Of a stretch of 40,407 nt of DNA, positions 6,743-24,386 are shown piece by piece. How positions within the stretch are numbered: position 1 is the stretch's first letter; each line of letters opens with the position of its first letter. The notes beneath the pieces are model-generated. The model was not told the origin of the DNA, did not search any database, and was given only the letters and a program-made list of their open reading frames with translations. Source of the stretch: Nitrospirota bacterium (GTDB lineage: Bacteria > Nitrospirota > Nitrospiria > JACQCE01); assembly GCA_040755775.1 (NCBI GenBank), contig JBFMAJ010000001.1, positions 1 through 40,407 on the forward strand, written 5' to 3'. Position numbers and translations under genes: made by a program.

Positions 6743-7819
6743 ATGAAAGCGCTCATCGCCGCGGGCGGCCGGGGGACGAGGCTCCGCCCGATCACGCATA
6801 CCAGCAACAAACACCTGATTCCGATCGCCAACAAGCCGATGCTTTTTTACGCGATCGAGGCGGTGGCGGCGGCCGGCATCCGGGAGATCGGCATCGTGTT
6901 CGATCCCGAAAGCCACGCGGCGATCAGCAAGGCCATCGCGCCATTCGCCCGCCAGGGGCTCCGGTTCACCCTGATGATTCAGGACGCGCCCCGCGGGCTG
7001 GCGCACGTCGTCAAGGTGGCGGAACCATTCATCGCGGGCGAGCCGTTCGTATTCCATCTGGGCGACAATCTGATGACGAATGACGTGGGCCGGTGCGTGC
7101 GGATGTTCGAGGCGCGCAAGTTGAATTGCCTGCTCGTGCTGGCCCAGGTCAAGGAGCCGCAGCGGTTCGGCGTGGCCGAAATTCGGGACGGACAGGTGAT
7201 CAGGGTCGAAGAGAAGCCGGCCAATCCCAAGAGTCCGTATGCCGTCACCGGATTGTACGTGTACGACCGGTCGGTTTTCGAAGCCGTCGCCGCGCTGCAT
7301 CCCAGCGCGCGCAACGAGCTGGAAATTTCCGACGCGCATCAGTACCTGATCGATCAGGGGTTCCAGGTCGGCTACACGGAAGTGGCGGGCTGGTGGAAGG
7401 ACACCGGAAAGCCGGAGGATCTGCTGGAGGCGAACCGGCTCGTGCTCGAGCAGCTCCTGGCGCGCGGCGGCTCGGTAATCAACGGCGAGGTGGACGAGGC
7501 CTCCGTGATCGACGGCAACGTGATCATCGAGGCGGGCGCGCGGGTCACGGCCAGCCGGCTGCGCGGCCCGTTGATCATCGGCGAACGGTGCGTGATCGAC
7601 GGCAGCGAGCTCGGTCCGTTCCTGTCGGTCGGGCCGGCGTGCCGCATCGTCCACAGCCGGATCGCGGACAGCATTCTGTTGGAAGAGTGCCGGGTCGAGG
7701 CGGTGGACGCGAGGATCGAGCGCAGCCTGCTGGGCCGCGGCGTGGAGCTGATCAAGGGGGGCGGCCCCGCCAGCCAGCGGATGATTCTGGGCGACGTGAG
7801 CCGGATCGAGTTCCCGTGA
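6743..7819 (+). CDS. rmlA: Sugar-1-phosphate nucleotidylyltransferase, long-form glucose-1-phosphate thymidylyltransferase-like, with a C-terminal left-handed beta-helix region
   Basis: MKALIAAGGRGTRLRPITHTSNKHLIPIANKPMLFY is the canonical G-x-G-T-R-L nucleotidyltransferase N-terminus. The 358-aa length and the C-terminal I/V-G-x hexapeptide-like repeats fit the long form. Confidence 0.85.
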   Translation: MKALIAAGGRGTRLRPITHTSNKHLIPIANKPMLFYAIEAVAAAGIREIGIVFDPESHAAISKAIAPFARQGLRFTLMIQDAPRGLAHVVKVAEPFIAGEPFVFHLGDNLMTNDVGRCVRMFEARKLNCLLVLAQVKEPQRFGVAEIRDGQVIRVEEKPANPKSPYAVTGLYVYDRSVFEAVAALHPSARNELEISDAHQYLIDQGFQVGYTEVAGWWKDTGKPEDLLEANRLVLEQLLARGGSVINGEVDEASVIDGNVIIEAGARVTASRLRGPLIIGERCVIDGSELGPFLSVGPACRIVHSRIADSILLEECRVEAVDARIERSLLGRGVELIKGGGPASQRMILGDVSRIEFP

Positions 7820-7831
7820 AACGAGCCGTCA

Positions 7832-7875
7832 GCGATGGGGGGTGTCGGGGGGAGAGGAGCATCTCCCCCCGATTG
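7832..7875. repeat. G-rich hairpin element, copy A (10-bp stem 7845-7854 / 7863-7872)
   Basis: GCGATGGGGGGTGTCGGGGGGAGAGGAGCATCTCCCCCCGATTG lies in the rmlA-rmlC intergenic gap. It is near-identical in layout to the element at 23694-23741. Confidence 0.6.
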
Positions 7876-7901
7876 AGCGAGTGCGTGGAGCACGAGCGGA
7901 T

Positions 7902-8381
7902 ATGATTCACGGAGTCCTCATCAAAGACTTAAAGGTATTATCCGATGACCGTGGATTTCTTATGGAAATGCTGCGCTCAGATGAGCCGATGTATGAGCGC
8001 TTCGGTCAGGTCTACATCACCGGCTGCAAGCGTGGCGTCGTCAAGGGCTGGCATTATCACAAAGAGCAGACCGATCATTTTATTTGCGTGCTGGGGCGGG
8101 CGCTGGTGGTGCTCTATGATCCCCGGGACGGCTCTCCGACCAAAGGCGCGGTGGAAGAGTATTACCTGGAGGCGCCGCCGGCCGCGAGCCGTCCGTCGAT
8201 CCTGTTGAAAATTCCCCCCTACGTCTATCACGGGTTTACACCCTCCGGGTGCGACGAGGCGCGCATTATCAACGTCCCGACGCTGCCCTACCGGCATGAG
8301 CAGCCGGACGAGTTCCGCCACCCCTGGAACAGCGCCGATATCCCGTATCGGTGGCCCGCGGACATAACACGGGGGGGATAA
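7902..8381 (+). CDS. rmlC: dTDP-4-dehydrorhamnose 3,5-epimerase-like cupin (short RmlC family)
   Basis: Internal ATG at 7902 of ORF 7842..8381. MIHGVLIKDLKVLSDDRGFLMEM...VVKGWHYHKEQTDHF matches the RmlC-type cupin pattern. The gene abuts rmlB (stop 8379-8381, ATG 8382). Confidence 0.7.
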   Translation: MIHGVLIKDLKVLSDDRGFLMEMLRSDEPMYERFGQVYITGCKRGVVKGWHYHKEQTDHFICVLGRALVVLYDPRDGSPTKGAVEEYYLEAPPAASRPSILLKIPPYVYHGFTPSGCDEARIINVPTLPYRHEQPDEFRHPWNSADIPYRWPADITRGG

Positions 8382-14847: not shown

Positions 14848-14876
14848 TTGACAGCCCCCGGGTCCTATGGTACCGT
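14848..14876 (+). promoter_or_regulatory. Candidate promoter (TTGACA-N17-TACCGT)
   Basis: TTGACA at 14848-14853 and TACCGT at 14871-14876. If real, the ATG at 14867 lies upstream of the transcription start. That favours the ATG at 14918 for the TPR gene. Confidence 0.3.
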
Positions 14877-14917
14877 TTTTCGACGAGGCATTTTCATGTC
14901 GATGCGACAGGCGATCT

Positions 14918-17887
14918 ATGGCCGTTGACCGCAGCACACTCATCCAAAATGCCCAGCGCTTCATGGCGCGCGGCCAGATCGACAAGGCGATCGAGGAATG
15001 GCAAAAGCTCGTCAGCCTGACCCCCCAGGACGGTAATCTCTACAATACGATCGGCGATCTCTATCTCAAGAAGAACGACACGCACCACGCGGTCGAGACG
15101 TTCATGCTCGCCGCCACCGCCTTCGAACGGGCCGGTTTCGCCCTGAAGACGATTGCGGTCTACAAGAAAGTGCTCAAAATCGATCCCTCCCACCTGGAGG
15201 TGAATCTCAAGCTGGCCGATTTGAACGCGGAGCGGGGGCTGACCGGCAACGCCATTGAAGATTACTTGAAGGTCGCCAAGGAGTATGGCCGCCGCGGCAA
15301 GGTGCAGGAGGCCTTGGAGATTTATCGCAAGATCGCCAATTTCGATCCGAACAATACCAATATCCGCCTGAAGCTGGCCGAGCTGAGCCTGAAGGAAAAA
15401 CTGACCGACGAGGCCATCGATGAATACATGAAGGTGGCCAAGAACTACGAGCAGAACGGCCGGGCCGGCGACGCGGCGGCGCTGTACAAGAAGATTCTCG
15501 AGATCAATCCCAAGCATGCCGGCGCCAAGGAGGCGCTCAAGGCGGGCGTGACGCCCGCCACCGTTGAGACGATGCCGACCGTCGCTGAGATCGAACAGGC
15601 GATCGGCGCCGAAGAGTGGGAAATGGCCAAGCGGAAGGTCGGCGTACTCTTGCTGCACGAGCCGACCAACGCCCAGCTTCGTCGGCTGCGCGGCGTCATT
15701 CTGTTGCACAACGGAGAGGCCGGATTGGCGTGGGCCGATTTTCGCGGCCTCGCGGAAGAAGCGGCCCGGTCCGGCCGGCTCGAAGACGCGATCGGACTGG
15801 TGCGGGACTTCCTGGGCCAGGCGCCGAAACAGACGGAGGCCGCTGAAATGGCCGCCAAGCTGCTGGATCAGGCGGGGCGGACGGAGGAGGCGCTGCACGC
15901 CTATGCCGCGTTGATCGATGCAATGGCGGAGGCGGGGTCGGACGCGGCGGATATTCTGGAGCATGTCAAGCGGATGAAAGAGCTCAATCCGGCCGGCGAG
16001 GTGACCCGACGCTATCAGGCCCGATTTGAACCGGACGTTGACGAGCCGCTCTCCGAGCCGGCGCAAACGGCCGTTGGGCCCGACCCGATCGCGGAAGAGA
16101 TGCTCGAGCCCTCGATCTCGGTGTTCAGCGACACCGCCGTCGAGCCGTCGATCTCCATGCACCGCGATGCCGTCGAGGAATCGGCGCCTCCGCCGCTCGC
16201 GGTGAACCCTTCAGAGCAGGCCTTTAGGGCGGGCGCTCACGATGAACCGCCGGCGGAGCAACCGGCAGTCCGAGAGGAGCTGATCGAGGAGCCGGCGCCG
16301 GCCCCGGAACCGACGGCCGTGGAAGCGGCGGCCCGGCTGGAGCCGATCCCCCTCGATCCGGAGCCGCCGGCCGACGTGGAGCCGTCCGTGAAGCCGGCGC
16401 CCAAAGCGCCGCCGGAGCGCTCGGTCAGTCTGCCGCGCCAAGCCAATCTGTCACAAAGCCGCGGCCGGAAAGCCCCGCCGGCCCCCAAAGAACCGTCGGT
16501 CAGCGGGGCTCCCGGCGCCAGCGTATCGCGCAGCCGCAGCGGAGGGACGGGCGCCGCGCCTCAGTCGACACCGGGCGCCAAGCGGCCTCGCTCGCGGGAT
16601 CTTCCCGACTATTTTGCGGAGGCCGAAGTCTATCTCAAGTACGGCCTGGCCTCCAAAGCCATCGAGCAATTCCAGATGATTCTGTCCGTGGACGCCAACA
16701 ACATTGAGGCCCACGGCAGGCTCCGGGAGCTGTATCAGCTTGAGGGGCGGATCGATGAAGCCGTGACCCACAGCGTTCTGCTGGCGAGGCTCTTTTTCGC
16801 TCGAGGGCAGCGCGAGCAGGCCGAGCAGGTGCTGTCGGAGGCGCGGGAATGGAACCCGGCCGACCCCCGGTTGCACGCGGCGCTCGAGGAGCAGAGCTCG
16901 ATCGGCCCCGCGTCCGTCGGCGCGATGCCGGAATCGGCGGAGACGACGCTGGCCCGTCCCAAACAGGATCTGCAGGAGTGGCTTGCGGAAGCCGAATTCT
17001 ACCTTCAGCAGGGGCTGGACGAGCAGGCGCATCAATTGTTCACGATCATCCGGCAGCATTATCCTCAAGCGCCGGAAGTGGTGGCCTATTTTGAAAACCA
17101 TCAAGATCCGCCGCTCGCGGTGAACCCTTCAGAGCAGGCCTTCAGGGCGGGCGCTCGCGGTGAACCGTCGAAGGCCAAACCGGCCGGTGCTCCGCTGGCG
17201 GAAGGATTGGATGACTTAGGCGATCCGCTGAACCAATCGGACGCTCCCGAGGAGAACGATCGATCGTTGAGCCGGAAGCTGGCCGATCTCTTTCCCGGCG
17301 CCTTCAGGGGCGTCGCCGAAGAGAGCGGCGGAGCGAATGACCGGCTGGCGGCGTCGGTCGAGGGCGTGATTCGGGCCATGGAACAGGGCGGCCAGCCTCT
17401 GTCGCCGGACGGCCCGGACCCCCATTACAGCCTTGGCTTGGCCTACAAGGAGATGGGGCTCCACGCCGAGGCGCGCAAGGAGTTCGAGCAGGCAATGCAG
17501 GCGCCCGTCTACCGCGTGGACGCGGCGCTGATGGCGGCGGCCTGTCATCAGGCGGAAGGCCATCCGCGCCAGGCCCTTCAGCAACTGCAAGAGTGCGCGG
17601 GATGGTTGGATGAGCAGGATCCCAAATGGCGCGCGGTCGTGTGCGAGCTGGCCGCGCTCCATGCCGAGGTTGGAGACCTGGACAGCGCCGCGGCGCAGGC
17701 CCGGCGGGTGCTCGCGGTGCAGGCGGATTACGAGCCGGCCGTGGCACTGCTCAAGCGCGTGACCGAACCGCCGAAGGACGAGCCTCGCGCGCCGGACAAG
17801 CCGATCAGCCAGCCGCCGAACGCCGAGCCGCGGCCGGCCGCCGCGCGAATGGGCAAGGACAAACGCTCTCGCATCTCGTACGTGTAG
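14918..17887 (+). CDS. Large TPR-repeat protein with a central Pro/Ala/Glu-rich low-complexity linker (MshN/PrsT-like context)
   Basis: ORF 14867..17887. The N-terminal third has consecutive 34-aa TPR-like units (AIEEWQKLVSLTPQD..., AVETFMLAATAFERAG..., AIEDYLKVAKEYGRRG..., AIDEYMKVAKNYEQNG...). Residues of roughly 400-590 are P/A/E/S-rich. The C-terminal part has further TPR-like helices. Confidence 0.8.
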   Translation: MAVDRSTLIQNAQRFMARGQIDKAIEEWQKLVSLTPQDGNLYNTIGDLYLKKNDTHHAVETFMLAATAFERAGFALKTIAVYKKVLKIDPSHLEVNLKLADLNAERGLTGNAIEDYLKVAKEYGRRGKVQEALEIYRKIANFDPNNTNIRLKLAELSLKEKLTDEAIDEYMKVAKNYEQNGRAGDAAALYKKILEINPKHAGAKEALKAGVTPATVETMPTVAEIEQAIGAEEWEMAKRKVGVLLLHEPTNAQLRRLRGVILLHNGEAGLAWADFRGLAEEAARSGRLEDAIGLVRDFLGQAPKQTEAAEMAAKLLDQAGRTEEALHAYAALIDAMAEAGSDAADILEHVKRMKELNPAGEVTRRYQARFEPDVDEPLSEPAQTAVGPDPIAEEMLEPSISVFSDTAVEPSISMHRDAVEESAPPPLAVNPSEQAFRAGAHDEPPAEQPAVREELIEEPAPAPEPTAVEAAARLEPIPLDPEPPADVEPSVKPAPKAPPERSVSLPRQANLSQSRGRKAPPAPKEPSVSGAPGASVSRSRSGGTGAAPQSTPGAKRPRSRDLPDYFAEAEVYLKYGLASKAIEQFQMILSVDANNIEAHGRLRELYQLEGRIDEAVTHSVLLARLFFARGQREQAEQVLSEAREWNPADPRLHAALEEQSSIGPASVGAMPESAETTLARPKQDLQEWLAEAEFYLQQGLDEQAHQLFTIIRQHYPQAPEVVAYFENHQDPPLAVNPSEQAFRAGARGEPSKAKPAGAPLAEGLDDLGDPLNQSDAPEENDRSLSRKLADLFPGAFRGVAEESGGANDRLAASVEGVIRAMEQGGQPLSPDGPDPHYSLGLAYKEMGLHAEARKEFEQAMQAPVYRVDAALMAAACHQAEGHPRQALQQLQECAGWLDEQDPKWRAVVCELAALHAEVGDLDSAAAQARRVLAVQADYEPAVALLKRVTEPPKDEPRAPDKPISQPPNAEPRPAAARMGKDKRSRISYV
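16190..16238 (+). repeat. 49-bp direct repeat, copy 1 (encodes PPLAVNPSEQAFRAGA)
   Basis: CCGCCGCTCGCGGTGAACCCTTCAGAGCAGGCCTTTAGGGCGGGCGCTC matches 17108-17156 at 48 of 49 positions. Confidence 0.9.
17108..17156 (+). repeat. 49-bp direct repeat, copy 2 (encodes PPLAVNPSEQAFRAGA)
   Basis: Same sequence as 16190-16238 with one T/C difference. Both copies lie inside the TPR gene and in the same reading frame. Confidence 0.9.
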
Positions 17888-22934: not shown

Positions 22935-23634
22935 GCTCGAGGCGGTGCATACTCGGTATGGGTTGGCCGAGGCCCTGAAAGGGGTATCCCTGGAGGTGCG
23001 GCCCGGGGAAATCGTCGCCTTGATCGGCGCGAACGGCGCCGGCAAGAGCACCACGCTCATGACGATTTCCGGCATGGTGCCGATCAGTGGAGGCGGCATC
23101 GAGTTCAACGGCGCGCCGATCGCGGGCCGCCCCCCGCACGAGATCACCCGGCTGGGGATTTGCCAGGTGCCGGAGGGGCGGCGGATATTTCCGAACATGA
23201 CGGTCTTGGAAAATCTCGAGATGGGCGCGTTCGGCGTGGCGGATGGGCGCGCGGCGGCCGAGGGGTTGGCCCAGGTGTTCGACTACTTTCCGATTCTGTC
23301 GGAGCGGCGGACGCAGCTCGGAGGGACCCTGAGCGGCGGCGAGCAGCAGATGCTGGCGATCGGCCGGGCGTTGATGGCGCGCCCGACGCTGCTCCTGCTG
23401 GACGAGCCGTCGCTGGGCCTGGCGCCGCTGGCCGTGAAGAAGATTTTCGGCATTATCCAGCGAATCAACCGGGAAGGGCGGACGATTTTGCTGGTGGAGC
23501 AAAACGCGCGAGCGGCGCTGTGCCTGGCCCACCGTGGCTACGTGATGGAGAGCGGGCGAATCGTCATGACGGATCAGGCGCGCGTCCTGCTCGATGACCC
23601 GCGCGTGTGCGAAGCGTACCTCGGAGAGTCCTAA
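22927..23634 (+). CDS. livF: ABC ATP-binding protein LivF
   Basis: GTG at 22927 gives VLKLEAVHTRYGLAEALKGVSLEV...LIGANGAGKSTT...LSGGEQQMLAIGRAL...LLLLDEPSLG. It overlaps the livG stop by 8 nt. Confidence 0.85.
   Translation: MLKLEAVHTRYGLAEALKGVSLEVRPGEIVALIGANGAGKSTTLMTISGMVPISGGGIEFNGAPIAGRPPHEITRLGICQVPEGRRIFPNMTVLENLEMGAFGVADGRAAAEGLAQVFDYFPILSERRTQLGGTLSGGEQQMLAIGRALMARPTLLLLDEPSLGLAPLAVKKIFGIIQRINREGRTILLVEQNARAALCLAHRGYVMESGRIVMTDQARVLLDDPRVCEAYLGES
23593..23634 (+). repeat. 42-bp segment encoding the LivF C-terminus (DDPRVCEAYLGES-stop), copy 1
   Basis: GATGACCCGCGCGTGTGCGAAGCGTACCTCGGAGAGTCCTAA. See copy 2 at 23743-23784. Confidence 0.9.
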
Positions 23635-23693
23635 GAGCCGTTACGGCAAGCCGAGCATCGAATTGACAGGCGAGACATGATCGCAACATGTAC

Positions 23694-23741
23694 GGCGATG
23701 GGGGGGTGTCAGGGGGAGCTGAGCCATCTCCCCCTGACTCC
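23694..23741. repeat. G-rich hairpin element, copy B (perfect 11-bp stem 23708-23718 / 23728-23738, 9-nt loop)
   Basis: GCGATGGGGGGGTGTCAGGGGGAGCTGAGCCATCTCCCCCTGACTCC has the same architecture and flanks (GCGATGGGGGG.TGTC.GGGGGAG...ATCTCCCCC.GA) as 7832-7875. Confidence 0.6.
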
Positions 23742-23742
23742 G

Positions 23743-23784
23743 GATGACCCGCGCGTGTGCGAGGCCTACCTCGGCGAATCATGA
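23743..23784 (+). repeat. 42-bp duplicate of the LivF C-terminal coding segment, copy 2; its stop overlaps the phosphatase ATG
   Basis: GATGACCCGCGCGTGTGCGAGGCCTACCTCGGCGAATCATGA encodes the identical peptide DDPRVCEAYLGES-stop. In the sense codons, every difference from copy 1 is at a third codon position. The stop codon also differs (TAA versus TGA). Confidence 0.9.
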
Positions 23785-24386
23785 CTGTGACAAGACTCTA
23801 CCTTGCTCGGCATGGCGAGACGGCCGGCGCGCGGCCCCGCAGCTACACCGGGCAACAGGATGCGCCGCTGAGCCCGTTGGGGCTGGAGCAGACGCGGCGG
23901 CTGGCGGAGTGGGCGGCGGCCGTCGAATGGGCCGCCGTCTACGCCAGCGATCTTCAGCGGGCCGCGCAGGCCGCCCGGCTGATCGCCGTGGCGCGTGGGG
24001 TGCCGCTCACGTTGACGCCGGCGCTGCGCGAAAAACACTTCGGCCGGTGGGAGGGCTTGACGTACGAGGAAGCTGAGGCGCAATTTCCCGACCAGTGGCG
24101 CGAGTGGCTGGCCGACCCGCCGGACTCGCGGCCGCCGGGCGGGGAGACATACCGCGAAGTGGAAGCGCGCGTCATGGGCCTGGTGGAGCGGCTGCTCCGC
24201 GAGCACGCGGGCCAATCAGTGCTGCTCGTGGCCCATGGCGGGGTGAACCGGGTCATACTCTGCCACGCCATGGGATTATCGCTGCAGCATGTCTTCCGCA
24301 TCGAGCAAGATCATGCCGCCTTGAACCGGATCGATTATTTTCCCGACGGCCACCGGGTGGTCGTGCTTCTCAACGGGGCGGTATAG
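23781..24386 (+). CDS. Histidine phosphatase family protein (phosphoglycerate mutase / CobC-like)
   Basis: Internal ATG at 23781 gives MTVTRLYLARHGETAG... (the RHGE catalytic motif), with VLLVAHGGVNR later. 201 aa. Confidence 0.8.
   Translation: MTVTRLYLARHGETAGARPRSYTGQQDAPLSPLGLEQTRRLAEWAAAVEWAAVYASDLQRAAQAARLIAVARGVPLTLTPALREKHFGRWEGLTYEEAEAQFPDQWREWLADPPDSRPPGGETYREVEARVMGLVERLLREHAGQSVLLVAHGGVNRVILCHAMGLSLQHVFRIEQDHAALNRIDYFPDGHRVVVLLNGAV

Follow-up and report, generated by a model that had tools for sequence, protein, structure and literature searches.

The question raised by this locus is why the end of one gene stands twice in front of the next one, with differences that leave the encoded peptide unchanged. 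The locus is the junction between livF, the gene for an ABC transporter ATP-binding protein, and cobC, the gene for a phosphatase, in a contig of a Nitrospirota bacterium (GenBank assembly GCA_040755775.1, contig JBFMAJ010000001.1). The whole stretch analysed, 40,407 nt of the forward strand, is called the window. The names of homologues place the host in the phylum Nitrospirota (class Nitrospiria); it is uncultured and known from a metagenome contig only. An element with a G-rich hairpin lies between the two copies of the livF end. The explanation that we prefer, with somewhat better than even confidence, is that a hairpin repeat was inserted at the livF-cobC junction with duplication of the livF tail, that both genes stayed intact, and that a small open reading frame (ORF) across the insert couples the translation of cobC to its own.

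Copy 1 of the livF end (GAT GAC ... TCC TAA) comprises the last 13 codons of livF and the stop codon TAA. Copy 2 (GAT GAC ... TCA TGA) is found 150 nt downstream of copy 1. In a direct-repeat search, the pair shows 89% identity over 38 nt at a spacing of 150 nt. A degenerate 32-nt pattern matches the window at the two copies only, where 0 matches are expected (100 shuffles). Both copies encode the peptide DDPRVCEAYLGES. The sense codons differ at five positions (21, 24, 33, 36, and 39), all of them third codon positions. The differences are A/G, G/C, A/C, G/A, and C/A, that is, two transitions and three transversions. The stop codon is TAA in copy 1 and TGA in copy 2. The TGA of copy 2 overlaps the cobC start codon (ATG 23781) as ATGA at 23781-23784. 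The offset of 150 nt is exactly 50 codons, and copy 2 is thus in the livF frame. This frame has no stop between the TAA at 23632-23634 and the TGA at 23782-23784, leaving an open stretch of 50 codons. Re-reading of the window and the repeat search reproduced what the original prediction had described here: the coordinates and sequences of both copies, the five of five third-position differences with the change of stop, the ATGA overlap, and the 108-nt spacer with the G-rich hairpin at 23635-23742. The 28-codon ORF that it had pointed out, from ATG 23698 to TGA 23784, exists as well, nested in a 35-codon ORF from ATG 23677.

Two other origins of the pair were considered and rejected. The tail of livG (RDPRVIEAYLG) as the source of either copy is identical at about 22 of 30 nt by hand count, versus 27 of 30 between the copies. 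In the repeats of diversity-generating retroelements, the differences are confined to template adenines, and a reverse transcriptase gene is nearby. The differences between copy 1 and copy 2 are not adenine-specific in either direction.

The closest LivF (P0002) is 87% identical and the closest phosphatase (P0122) is 80% identical to those of the window; they are on the contigs L081 to L083. The gene order of these contigs is the same as that of the window: livH, livM, livG, livF, the phosphatase gene, a small ORF on the minus strand, a ParA-like gene, and a DnaJ-like gene. In all three contigs, just 7 nt separate the livF stop from the phosphatase ATG, and spacer, hairpin, and second copy are all absent. 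The livF end of these relatives reads ...GAT AAT CCG CGC GTG TGC GAG GCC TAT CTC GGT CAG GAC GCG TGA. A 6.8-kb alignment of the window with L081 is collinear at ~80% identity, and its sole large indel is the 150 nt at the livF-cobC junction. Because L081 to L083 have neither the spacer nor the second copy, the 150 nt are an insertion in the lineage of the window. This insertion is well supported, and it bears out the earlier proposal that inserted DNA separated livF and the phosphatase gene. The closer relatives were obtained by protein search; the scan of a genome collection with LivF returned only relatives with 65% identity or less, which are of no use for the junction. Two phosphatase relatives, P0129 and P0124, are not preceded by livF and are likewise uninformative for the junction.

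Copy 2 is regarded as the original livF end, because it holds the ATG of cobC and is contiguous with cobC as in the relatives. This ATG is conserved with the phosphatase starts of the relatives (MT...RLYL). Copy 1 would accordingly be the added copy, which now serves as the working end of livF. It is likely that the ancestral livF ended at or on the start codon of cobC. The original prediction went further and proposed that livF once overlapped the phosphatase start directly. The retention of the original end in copy 2 agrees with this proposal, but an uninterrupted ATGA junction between livF and the phosphatase gene was found in none of the relatives examined, and the nearest ones have a 7-nt gap. 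It is therefore copy 2 alone that suggests an ancestral ATGA overlap. Of the 60 homologues inspected, P0002 alone shares the Cys residue of PRVCEAYLG with the window, indicating that both copies stem from a narrow lineage.

The insert is not anonymous sequence but belongs to a repeat family. The element begins with the left end GAGCCGT, continues with a 52-nt internal segment, and carries the hairpin at its right end. The window contains two copies of the element in its 40 kb. The second copy, at 7820-7901, lies between the gene for glucose-1-phosphate thymidylyltransferase (rfbA, 6743-7819) and an rmlC-like gene (ATG 7902), both named from NCBIfam. The full 108-nt spacer aligns to this copy except for the 52-nt internal segment, which is extra. 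The two copies have the GCGATGG flank of the hairpin and the GAGCCGT left end in common, and their stems differ by a compensatory change from A-T to G-C. The hairpin at 23705-23741 is not a canonical intrinsic terminator because there is no T-run. A promoter and terminator scan around the junction found no site. A search of 23400-24000 against Rfam with E up to 10 gave only microRNA models at chance level on the hairpin (E 1.6-9.4, far below the gathering scores), and no cobalamin riboswitch. A 21-nt inverted repeat, 81% complementary, pairs the left end of the element (23637-23657) with codons 8-15 of cobC (23804-23824); its score of 26, against a null maximum of 24, is marginal, and it is probably due to chance.

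The family is widespread in metagenomes. A contig scan with the hairpin pattern GGGGTGTCRGGGGGAG-N5-12-CTCCCCCYGA found at least 120 matching contigs (L085 to L204), mostly from high-GC soil or sediment. The matches listed, to which the following family figures refer, have a median GC of 0.70 and comprise 136 sites in 120 loci, 16 of which hold two. Their consensus is ..CCGGTGG GGGGTGTCGGGGGGAGCGGCGNTCGCTCCCCCCGA CGTTGA... The hairpin is often preceded by a second small hairpin, GAGCGCCGGCTTTGCCGGCGC, and is sometimes in tandem. At one variable stem pair, G-C is found 95 times, G-T 24 times, A-T 3 times, and A-C 0 times, and pairing of the inner stem continues into the variable center more often than in shuffles. 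The predicted hairpin energies of the element copies are -25 to -27 kcal/mol. For at least 37 of the 125 copies listed, the distance to a gene's stop codon is 1-11 nt. Some copies are inside reading frames, for example, at the 3' end of hyuA. No match to the hairpin pattern was found in 2.9 million viral contigs, Rfam has no model for the family, and the hairpin sequence string has no occurrence in the searchable literature.

At the hyuA-hyuB junction of five diverged loci (L085, L126, L129, L192, and L197), the hairpin is within the 3' end of the hydantoinase A frame (..EAMGGVGGSEHRSP, then stop). The hyuA frame through the hairpin stops 0-16 nt from the start of hyuB, the gene for hydantoinase B. 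L126 and L197 have an extra partial duplication of the right arm of the hairpin just before hyuB.

Four copies of the Nitrospirota type can be compared at their junctions: copy A of the window (7820-7901, between rfbA and rmlC), copy B (between livF and cobC), and those in the contigs L206 and L211. All four are between co-directional genes and in the orientation of the genes, and in all four cases the junction is compact in relatives. At the rfbA-rmlC junction, L205 has an ATGA overlap and no insert, L211 has a 22-nt gap, and L213 and L214 have an 8-nt gap. At the same junction, the window has an insert of 82 nt and L206 and L207 have one of 145 nt, whose hairpin is related and whose right arm, TGAGCGAGTGC, is the same. 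In L211, a further copy of the element is present at the next junction, between rmlC and an epimerase gene. The elements of L206 and L211 have a common right arm, TGAGCG..GTGCGAGCGGA, and in each of them the ORF is open from the upstream stop to the downstream ATGA. L208 shows a different situation at 1126-1185. The first ~17 nt of rmlC (ATGATCCACGGCGTGATCGTG) are left after the rfbA stop, the rest is missing, and 40 AT-rich nt follow, apparently as the relic of a deletion.

Among the frames ending in the downstream ATGA, 4 of 4 are free of stops over the full length of the insert, versus 2 of 8 for the other frames (p about 0.03, Fisher test by hand). The probability of an open bridging frame in shuffles is 0.41 for copy A, 0.27 for copy B, 0.18 for L206, and 0.26 for L211. 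The ATGA itself also follows from the second codons ACN or ATY and is thus present without the element too. The starts of the bridging ORFs are various. The ORF of copy A overlaps the upstream stop (Table 1), that of L206 starts with ATG 2 nt past the upstream stop, and that of L211 starts with GTG 5 nt before or TTG 5 nt after the stop. The frame used through the hairpin arm differs between L206 and copy A, and the ORF is open in both. For the peptide of the small ORF of copy B (23677-23784), there is no protein family match.

These observations can be put together as follows. The end of livF would have been at or on the cobC start in the ancestor, and the 108-nt palindromic element would have been inserted there. 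The duplication would make this insertion tolerable. LivF would keep its conserved C-terminus (DPRVxEAYLG), and cobC would keep its native 38-nt leader and the stop/start overlap through copy 2. The ORF from ATG 23677 or 23698 would be read through the hairpin and copy 2 and end on the ATGA. A ribosome on this small ORF may open a helix over the cobC start, terminate at the ATGA, and be delivered to the cobC start, which is the classical scheme of coupling. The peptide of the small ORF itself probably has no function.

The predicted structure of the transcript is compatible with such a role. The folded 171-nt region has a predicted z of -3.0. A 9-bp helix, CAUGAUCGC / GCGAAUCAUG, is predicted between 23676-23684, the region of the first ATG of the small ORF, and 23774-23783, the region of the cobC start. 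The predicted probability that the cobC ATG is unpaired is 0.01, versus 0.54 in L081. The Shine-Dalgarno complementarity of cobC is weak, as for most genes here. Of the five silent differences, three (33, 36, and 39) fall on nucleotides that copy 2 contributes to the predicted helix, and this may be meaningful or not. Coupling through the small ORF is plausible, with comparative support from the open bridging frames.

It is less simple to explain why the divergence between the copies is silent only. With both copies drifting freely, five synonymous differences out of five have a probability of 0.0007-0.002. With copy 1 constrained by selection on LivF and drift confined to copy 2, the probability is 0.006-0.016 by both analytic and simulated estimates. 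The null with copy 1 constrained is the fairer one. The excess of third-position differences over chance, which the original prediction had proposed to check, thus has a p of about 0.006-0.016 on this copy pair with its five sites. Polarized by the relatives, the differences give a mixed picture, with changes in copy 1 at codons 7 and 8 and a probable change in copy 2 at codon 12. The ATG of cobC fixes positions 39 and 41 of copy 2. All five differences are in the last 22 nt (hypergeometric 0.016), and the first 20 nt are identical. These 20 nt are also identical in L083 and thus may simply be slow-evolving. The divergence from L081, silent or at the nucleotide level, shows no step at the junction.

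Duplication of a gene end beside the hairpin is observed in one more locus. Alignment of flank versus flank for the 125 hairpin sites listed found a significant direct repeat at two sites only, the livF copy and L102. The same A-T variant of the hairpin lies in L102 between the two copies of a 104-nt repeat, which are identical at 103 of 104 positions. The repeat unit is the last 72 nt of msrB, the stop, and 30 nt. The duplication in L102 is unrelated to any downstream start. This repeat indicates that duplication of a gene end beside the hairpin does arise in situ. A second paralogue of msrB is present downstream in L102. A tail duplication was also considered for copy A of the window, where AGCGGAT before ATG 7902 might be a relic of the rfbA end, and was rejected, as the alignment of its flanks is not significant. 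The AGCGGAT motif belongs to the right arm of the element, because L211 has AGCGGAT at an unrelated junction. The candidates for the mechanism of the livF duplication are staggered breaks, template switching provoked by the hairpin, and unequal exchange.

Several points weigh against the explanation that we prefer. The silent-only statistic rests on five sites with p about 0.01. Coupling by itself does not explain the silent-only divergence, because an open frame suffices for it and the peptide need not be conserved. The four elements share ancestry, and their open frames are thus not fully independent. In copy B, the small ORF lacks a start at the livF stop. Its first ATG comes 43 nt further downstream, without a good Shine-Dalgarno sequence, and the predicted fold has this ATG paired as well. 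Sequestration of the start codon as a design of the family was rejected, as it is seen in the livF copy only and not in the other three. A flanking duplication is found in only 2 of the 125 listed family members and is therefore not a regular product of insertion. The copies differ silently at 5 of 13 codons (38%), and the corresponding value between the window and L081 is 33-46% of conserved codons. A silent divergence of 38% is hard to reconcile with a simple young duplication, and a neutral copy 2 of that age should be altered heavily at all codon positions. The five differences show that copy 2 is not decaying freely as a relic; it may be under some constraint, or two livF ends that worked in different lineages may have been joined recently. 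A constraint could lie in the translation of copy 2, in its function as leader of cobC, or indirectly in gene conversion with copy 1, by which missense changes in copy 2 become costly in large populations. Within the in-situ duplication, the likeliest combination is selection on copy 1 and an indirect constraint on copy 2 via translation or gene conversion.

The joining of two alleles is an alternative that we consider rather doubtful. Here, copy 1, the element, and some of livF would come from a related lineage, and copy 2 would be the livF end of the recipient. Entry would have been by pairing of homologous livF sequence and, at the right end of the element, by a join that was illegitimate or site-specific, and the small ORF would be incidental. 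Both copies would have been working gene ends until recently, which would account for the silent-only differences. Their silent divergence equals that between the window and L081, as is the case for orthologous alleles and not for a young duplicate. The 20 identical nt followed by all five differences are compatible with a crossover point, although the identity of the same 20 nt in L083 points to perhaps slow evolution. The mixed polarization by the outgroup also fits two alleles, and a donor with livF, a stop, and then the element is plausible given that the family typically lies a few nt past stops. On the other hand, no donor-like sequence was found: among 5.8 billion proteins, the LivF nearest to that of the window has 87% identity and comes without the insert. 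The absence of a step in divergence from L081 at the junction also speaks against a joined segment. Both copies have DD...GES, and the nearest relative has DN...GQDA, so the donor would have to be silently diverged yet identical in protein. Finally, a rare illegitimate join is needed, whereas in-situ duplication beside the hairpin is seen in L102.

The silent-only divergence might instead reflect the product of the small ORF, a micro-protein of 28-35 residues ending in DDPRVCEAYLGES, such as a mimic of the LivF tail, under purifying selection. An open frame with ATG starts is in line with such a peptide, and so is the lack of any non-synonymous change among the five differences (p about 0.006-0.016 if copy 2 is taken as neutral). 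It is nevertheless very unlikely: neither a homologue nor a family match was found for the peptide, the insert is confined to the lineage of the window, the tails encoded by the ORFs of the other three element copies are unrelated, a good ribosome-binding site is absent, and five sites are a very small sample. The same small number of informative sites, in a feature picked for looking unusual, leaves some room for chance. The duplication would then have occurred in situ, with copy 2 free except for the cobC ATG and the spacer frame open by chance at 0.27; a variant, to which the metagenomic origin of the contig lends itself, is an assembly chimera of two strains. We regard this as unlikely. 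The p of 0.006-0.016 is obtained even with copy 1 under selection, and a free copy 2 should carry many changes at all codon positions. For the chimera, there is no shared k-mer to explain why an assembler would join the right end of the element with copy 2, and the left end and hairpin of the element match the second copy on the same contig.

The livF gene is the last one of the livH-livM-livG-livF cluster, and its GTG start overlaps the end of livG. The best NCBIfam match of LivF is NF008626 (LivF) with an E of 4e-76, under the equivalog cut-off, and its homologues are named branched-chain amino acid transport ATP-binding protein. The cobC product scores 166.5 bits against TIGR03162, whose cut-off is 162.9, and its homologues carry Pfam PF00300. 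The positions of all features are listed in Table 1. Elsewhere in the window, a 78-nt direct repeat (16189-16266 and 17107-17184, 88% identical, 918 nt apart) is found within the gene for a 1006-aa protein (14867-17887; TPR-like by eye), where it encodes a repeated PPLAVNPSEQAFRAGA motif.

Table 1. Coordinates of the genes, repeat copies, elements, and ORFs. Positions are those of the window unless another contig is named.
Feature	Position	Strand	Remarks
livF-type ABC transporter ATP-binding gene, 235 aa	22927..23634	+	ORF list, NCBIfam, homologue names
Copy 1, probable working livF end	23593..23634	+	codons 7 and 8 (GAA GCG) derived versus GAG GCC of the relatives
Inserted element, 108 nt, member of the palindromic repeat family	23635..23742	+	absent from L081-L083; nhmmer E = 2e-9 against the profile of the family
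Small ORF, 35 codons from ATG 23677 or 28 codons from ATG 23698	23677..23784	+	livF frame; TGA overlaps the cobC ATG
G-rich hairpin GGTGTCAGGGGGAGCTG / CATCTCCCCCTGACTCC	23705..23741	+	inverted repeat; predicted fold -27 kcal/mol
Copy 2, probable displaced ancestral livF end	23743..23784	+	38-nt leader and ATG of cobC; GAG GCC as in the relatives
cobC, alpha-ribazole phosphatase (histidine phosphatase family), 201 aa	23781..24386	+	NCBIfam TIGR03162
Second element copy, 82 nt, hairpin core 7839-7872	7820..7901	+	left end and hairpin in common at 7823-7872
Bridging ORF of the second copy, 29 codons	7816..7905	+	GTGA overlap with the upstream stop; ATGA overlap with the downstream ATG
Related element, 145 nt, rfbA-rmlC junction	L206 2278-2422		other Nitrospiria contig
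Related element, 111 nt, rmlC-epimerase junction	L211 2383-2493		other Nitrospiria contig
msrB tail region of L102	L102 1047-1490		second hairpin split by a ~55-nt insertion, then a third, decayed tail copy

The livF case alone is a single micro-evolutionary event in one uncultured genome, and the element family is the more valuable lead. The analysis flags a hairpin repeat family with at least 120 soil-metagenome contigs that was not found in Rfam or in the searchable literature. It is also a warning to annotators: short duplicated gene ends and small ORFs beside such hairpins are by-products of insertion, not new genes.

The arrangement at livF resembles the direct repeats of integrative elements. 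Such elements can restore the 3' end of their target gene and leave the direct repeats attL and attR, and decayed remnants mobilizable in cis are also known. As in those repeats, there are two copies of a gene 3' end, of which the upstream one completes the gene and the downstream one is the original, now displaced, and an identical core is accompanied by diverged flanks. In contrast, only 108 nt lie between the repeats, with no integrase gene and no island of kilobase scale. The intervening DNA aligns wholly to a small repeat element that is found elsewhere without livF sequence.

The family behaves like a repetitive extragenic palindromic (REP) type of repeat. Its members are short imperfect palindromes with a covarying stem, as in REPs and bacterial interspersed mosaic elements (BIMEs). 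REPs are present in many copies and are mostly extragenic, and the family may be similar in this, with two copies in the 40 kb of the window and at least 37 of the 125 copies listed close to a stop. The classical GT(A/G)G head of REPs is absent here, and some copies are inside reading frames, as at the hyuA 3' end. To our knowledge, insertion of a REP is not known to duplicate 40-100 nt of its target. REPs are often within about 15 nt of the upstream stop and are reported to affect translation there (PMC12306157).

Translational coupling through an upstream ORF, by termination-reinitiation or by RNA unfolding, has been reviewed (PMC12548453). The small ORF at livF is similar in that it is short and ends on a weak start, that of cobC, which is predicted to be base-paired. 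It differs in that its own start is weak.

The closest parallel in layout is with the interspersed repetitive units of mycobacteria (MIRUs), which are short repeats between co-directional genes of operons (PMC12548453). The ORF of a MIRU ends in a -4 overlap of the ATGA type on the downstream start, and its insertion thus disturbs expression little (PMC12548453). Likewise, all four copies of the Nitrospirota type have an ORF ending in the downstream ATGA, and the ORF at 7816-7905 also overlaps the upstream stop. The likeness is an analogy of layout and function only, in a different phylum, Nitrospirota, and no sequence relation is claimed. The elements described here are built on a strong G/C hairpin and not on tandem arrays. 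In the livF copy, moreover, the part of the ORF that reaches the ATGA is the duplicated end of the upstream gene and not element sequence, and the ORF starts 43 nt from the upstream stop. Should the bridging ORFs be translated, they would be a second, phylogenetically remote case of the MIRU principle, in which a repeat spreading through operons keeps the downstream gene coupled. They would also show that overlapping stop/start junctions can be opened by insertion without the loss of either gene. It is tentatively proposed, by analogy with MIRUs, that mobile hairpins in Nitrospirota, and perhaps in other soil bacteria, have adapted to tight operon junctions via a translated bridge. The bridge at livF would be a translated duplicate of the gene tail held at the protein level, a new way to preserve coupling, and the family as a whole may be an independent analogue of MIRUs.

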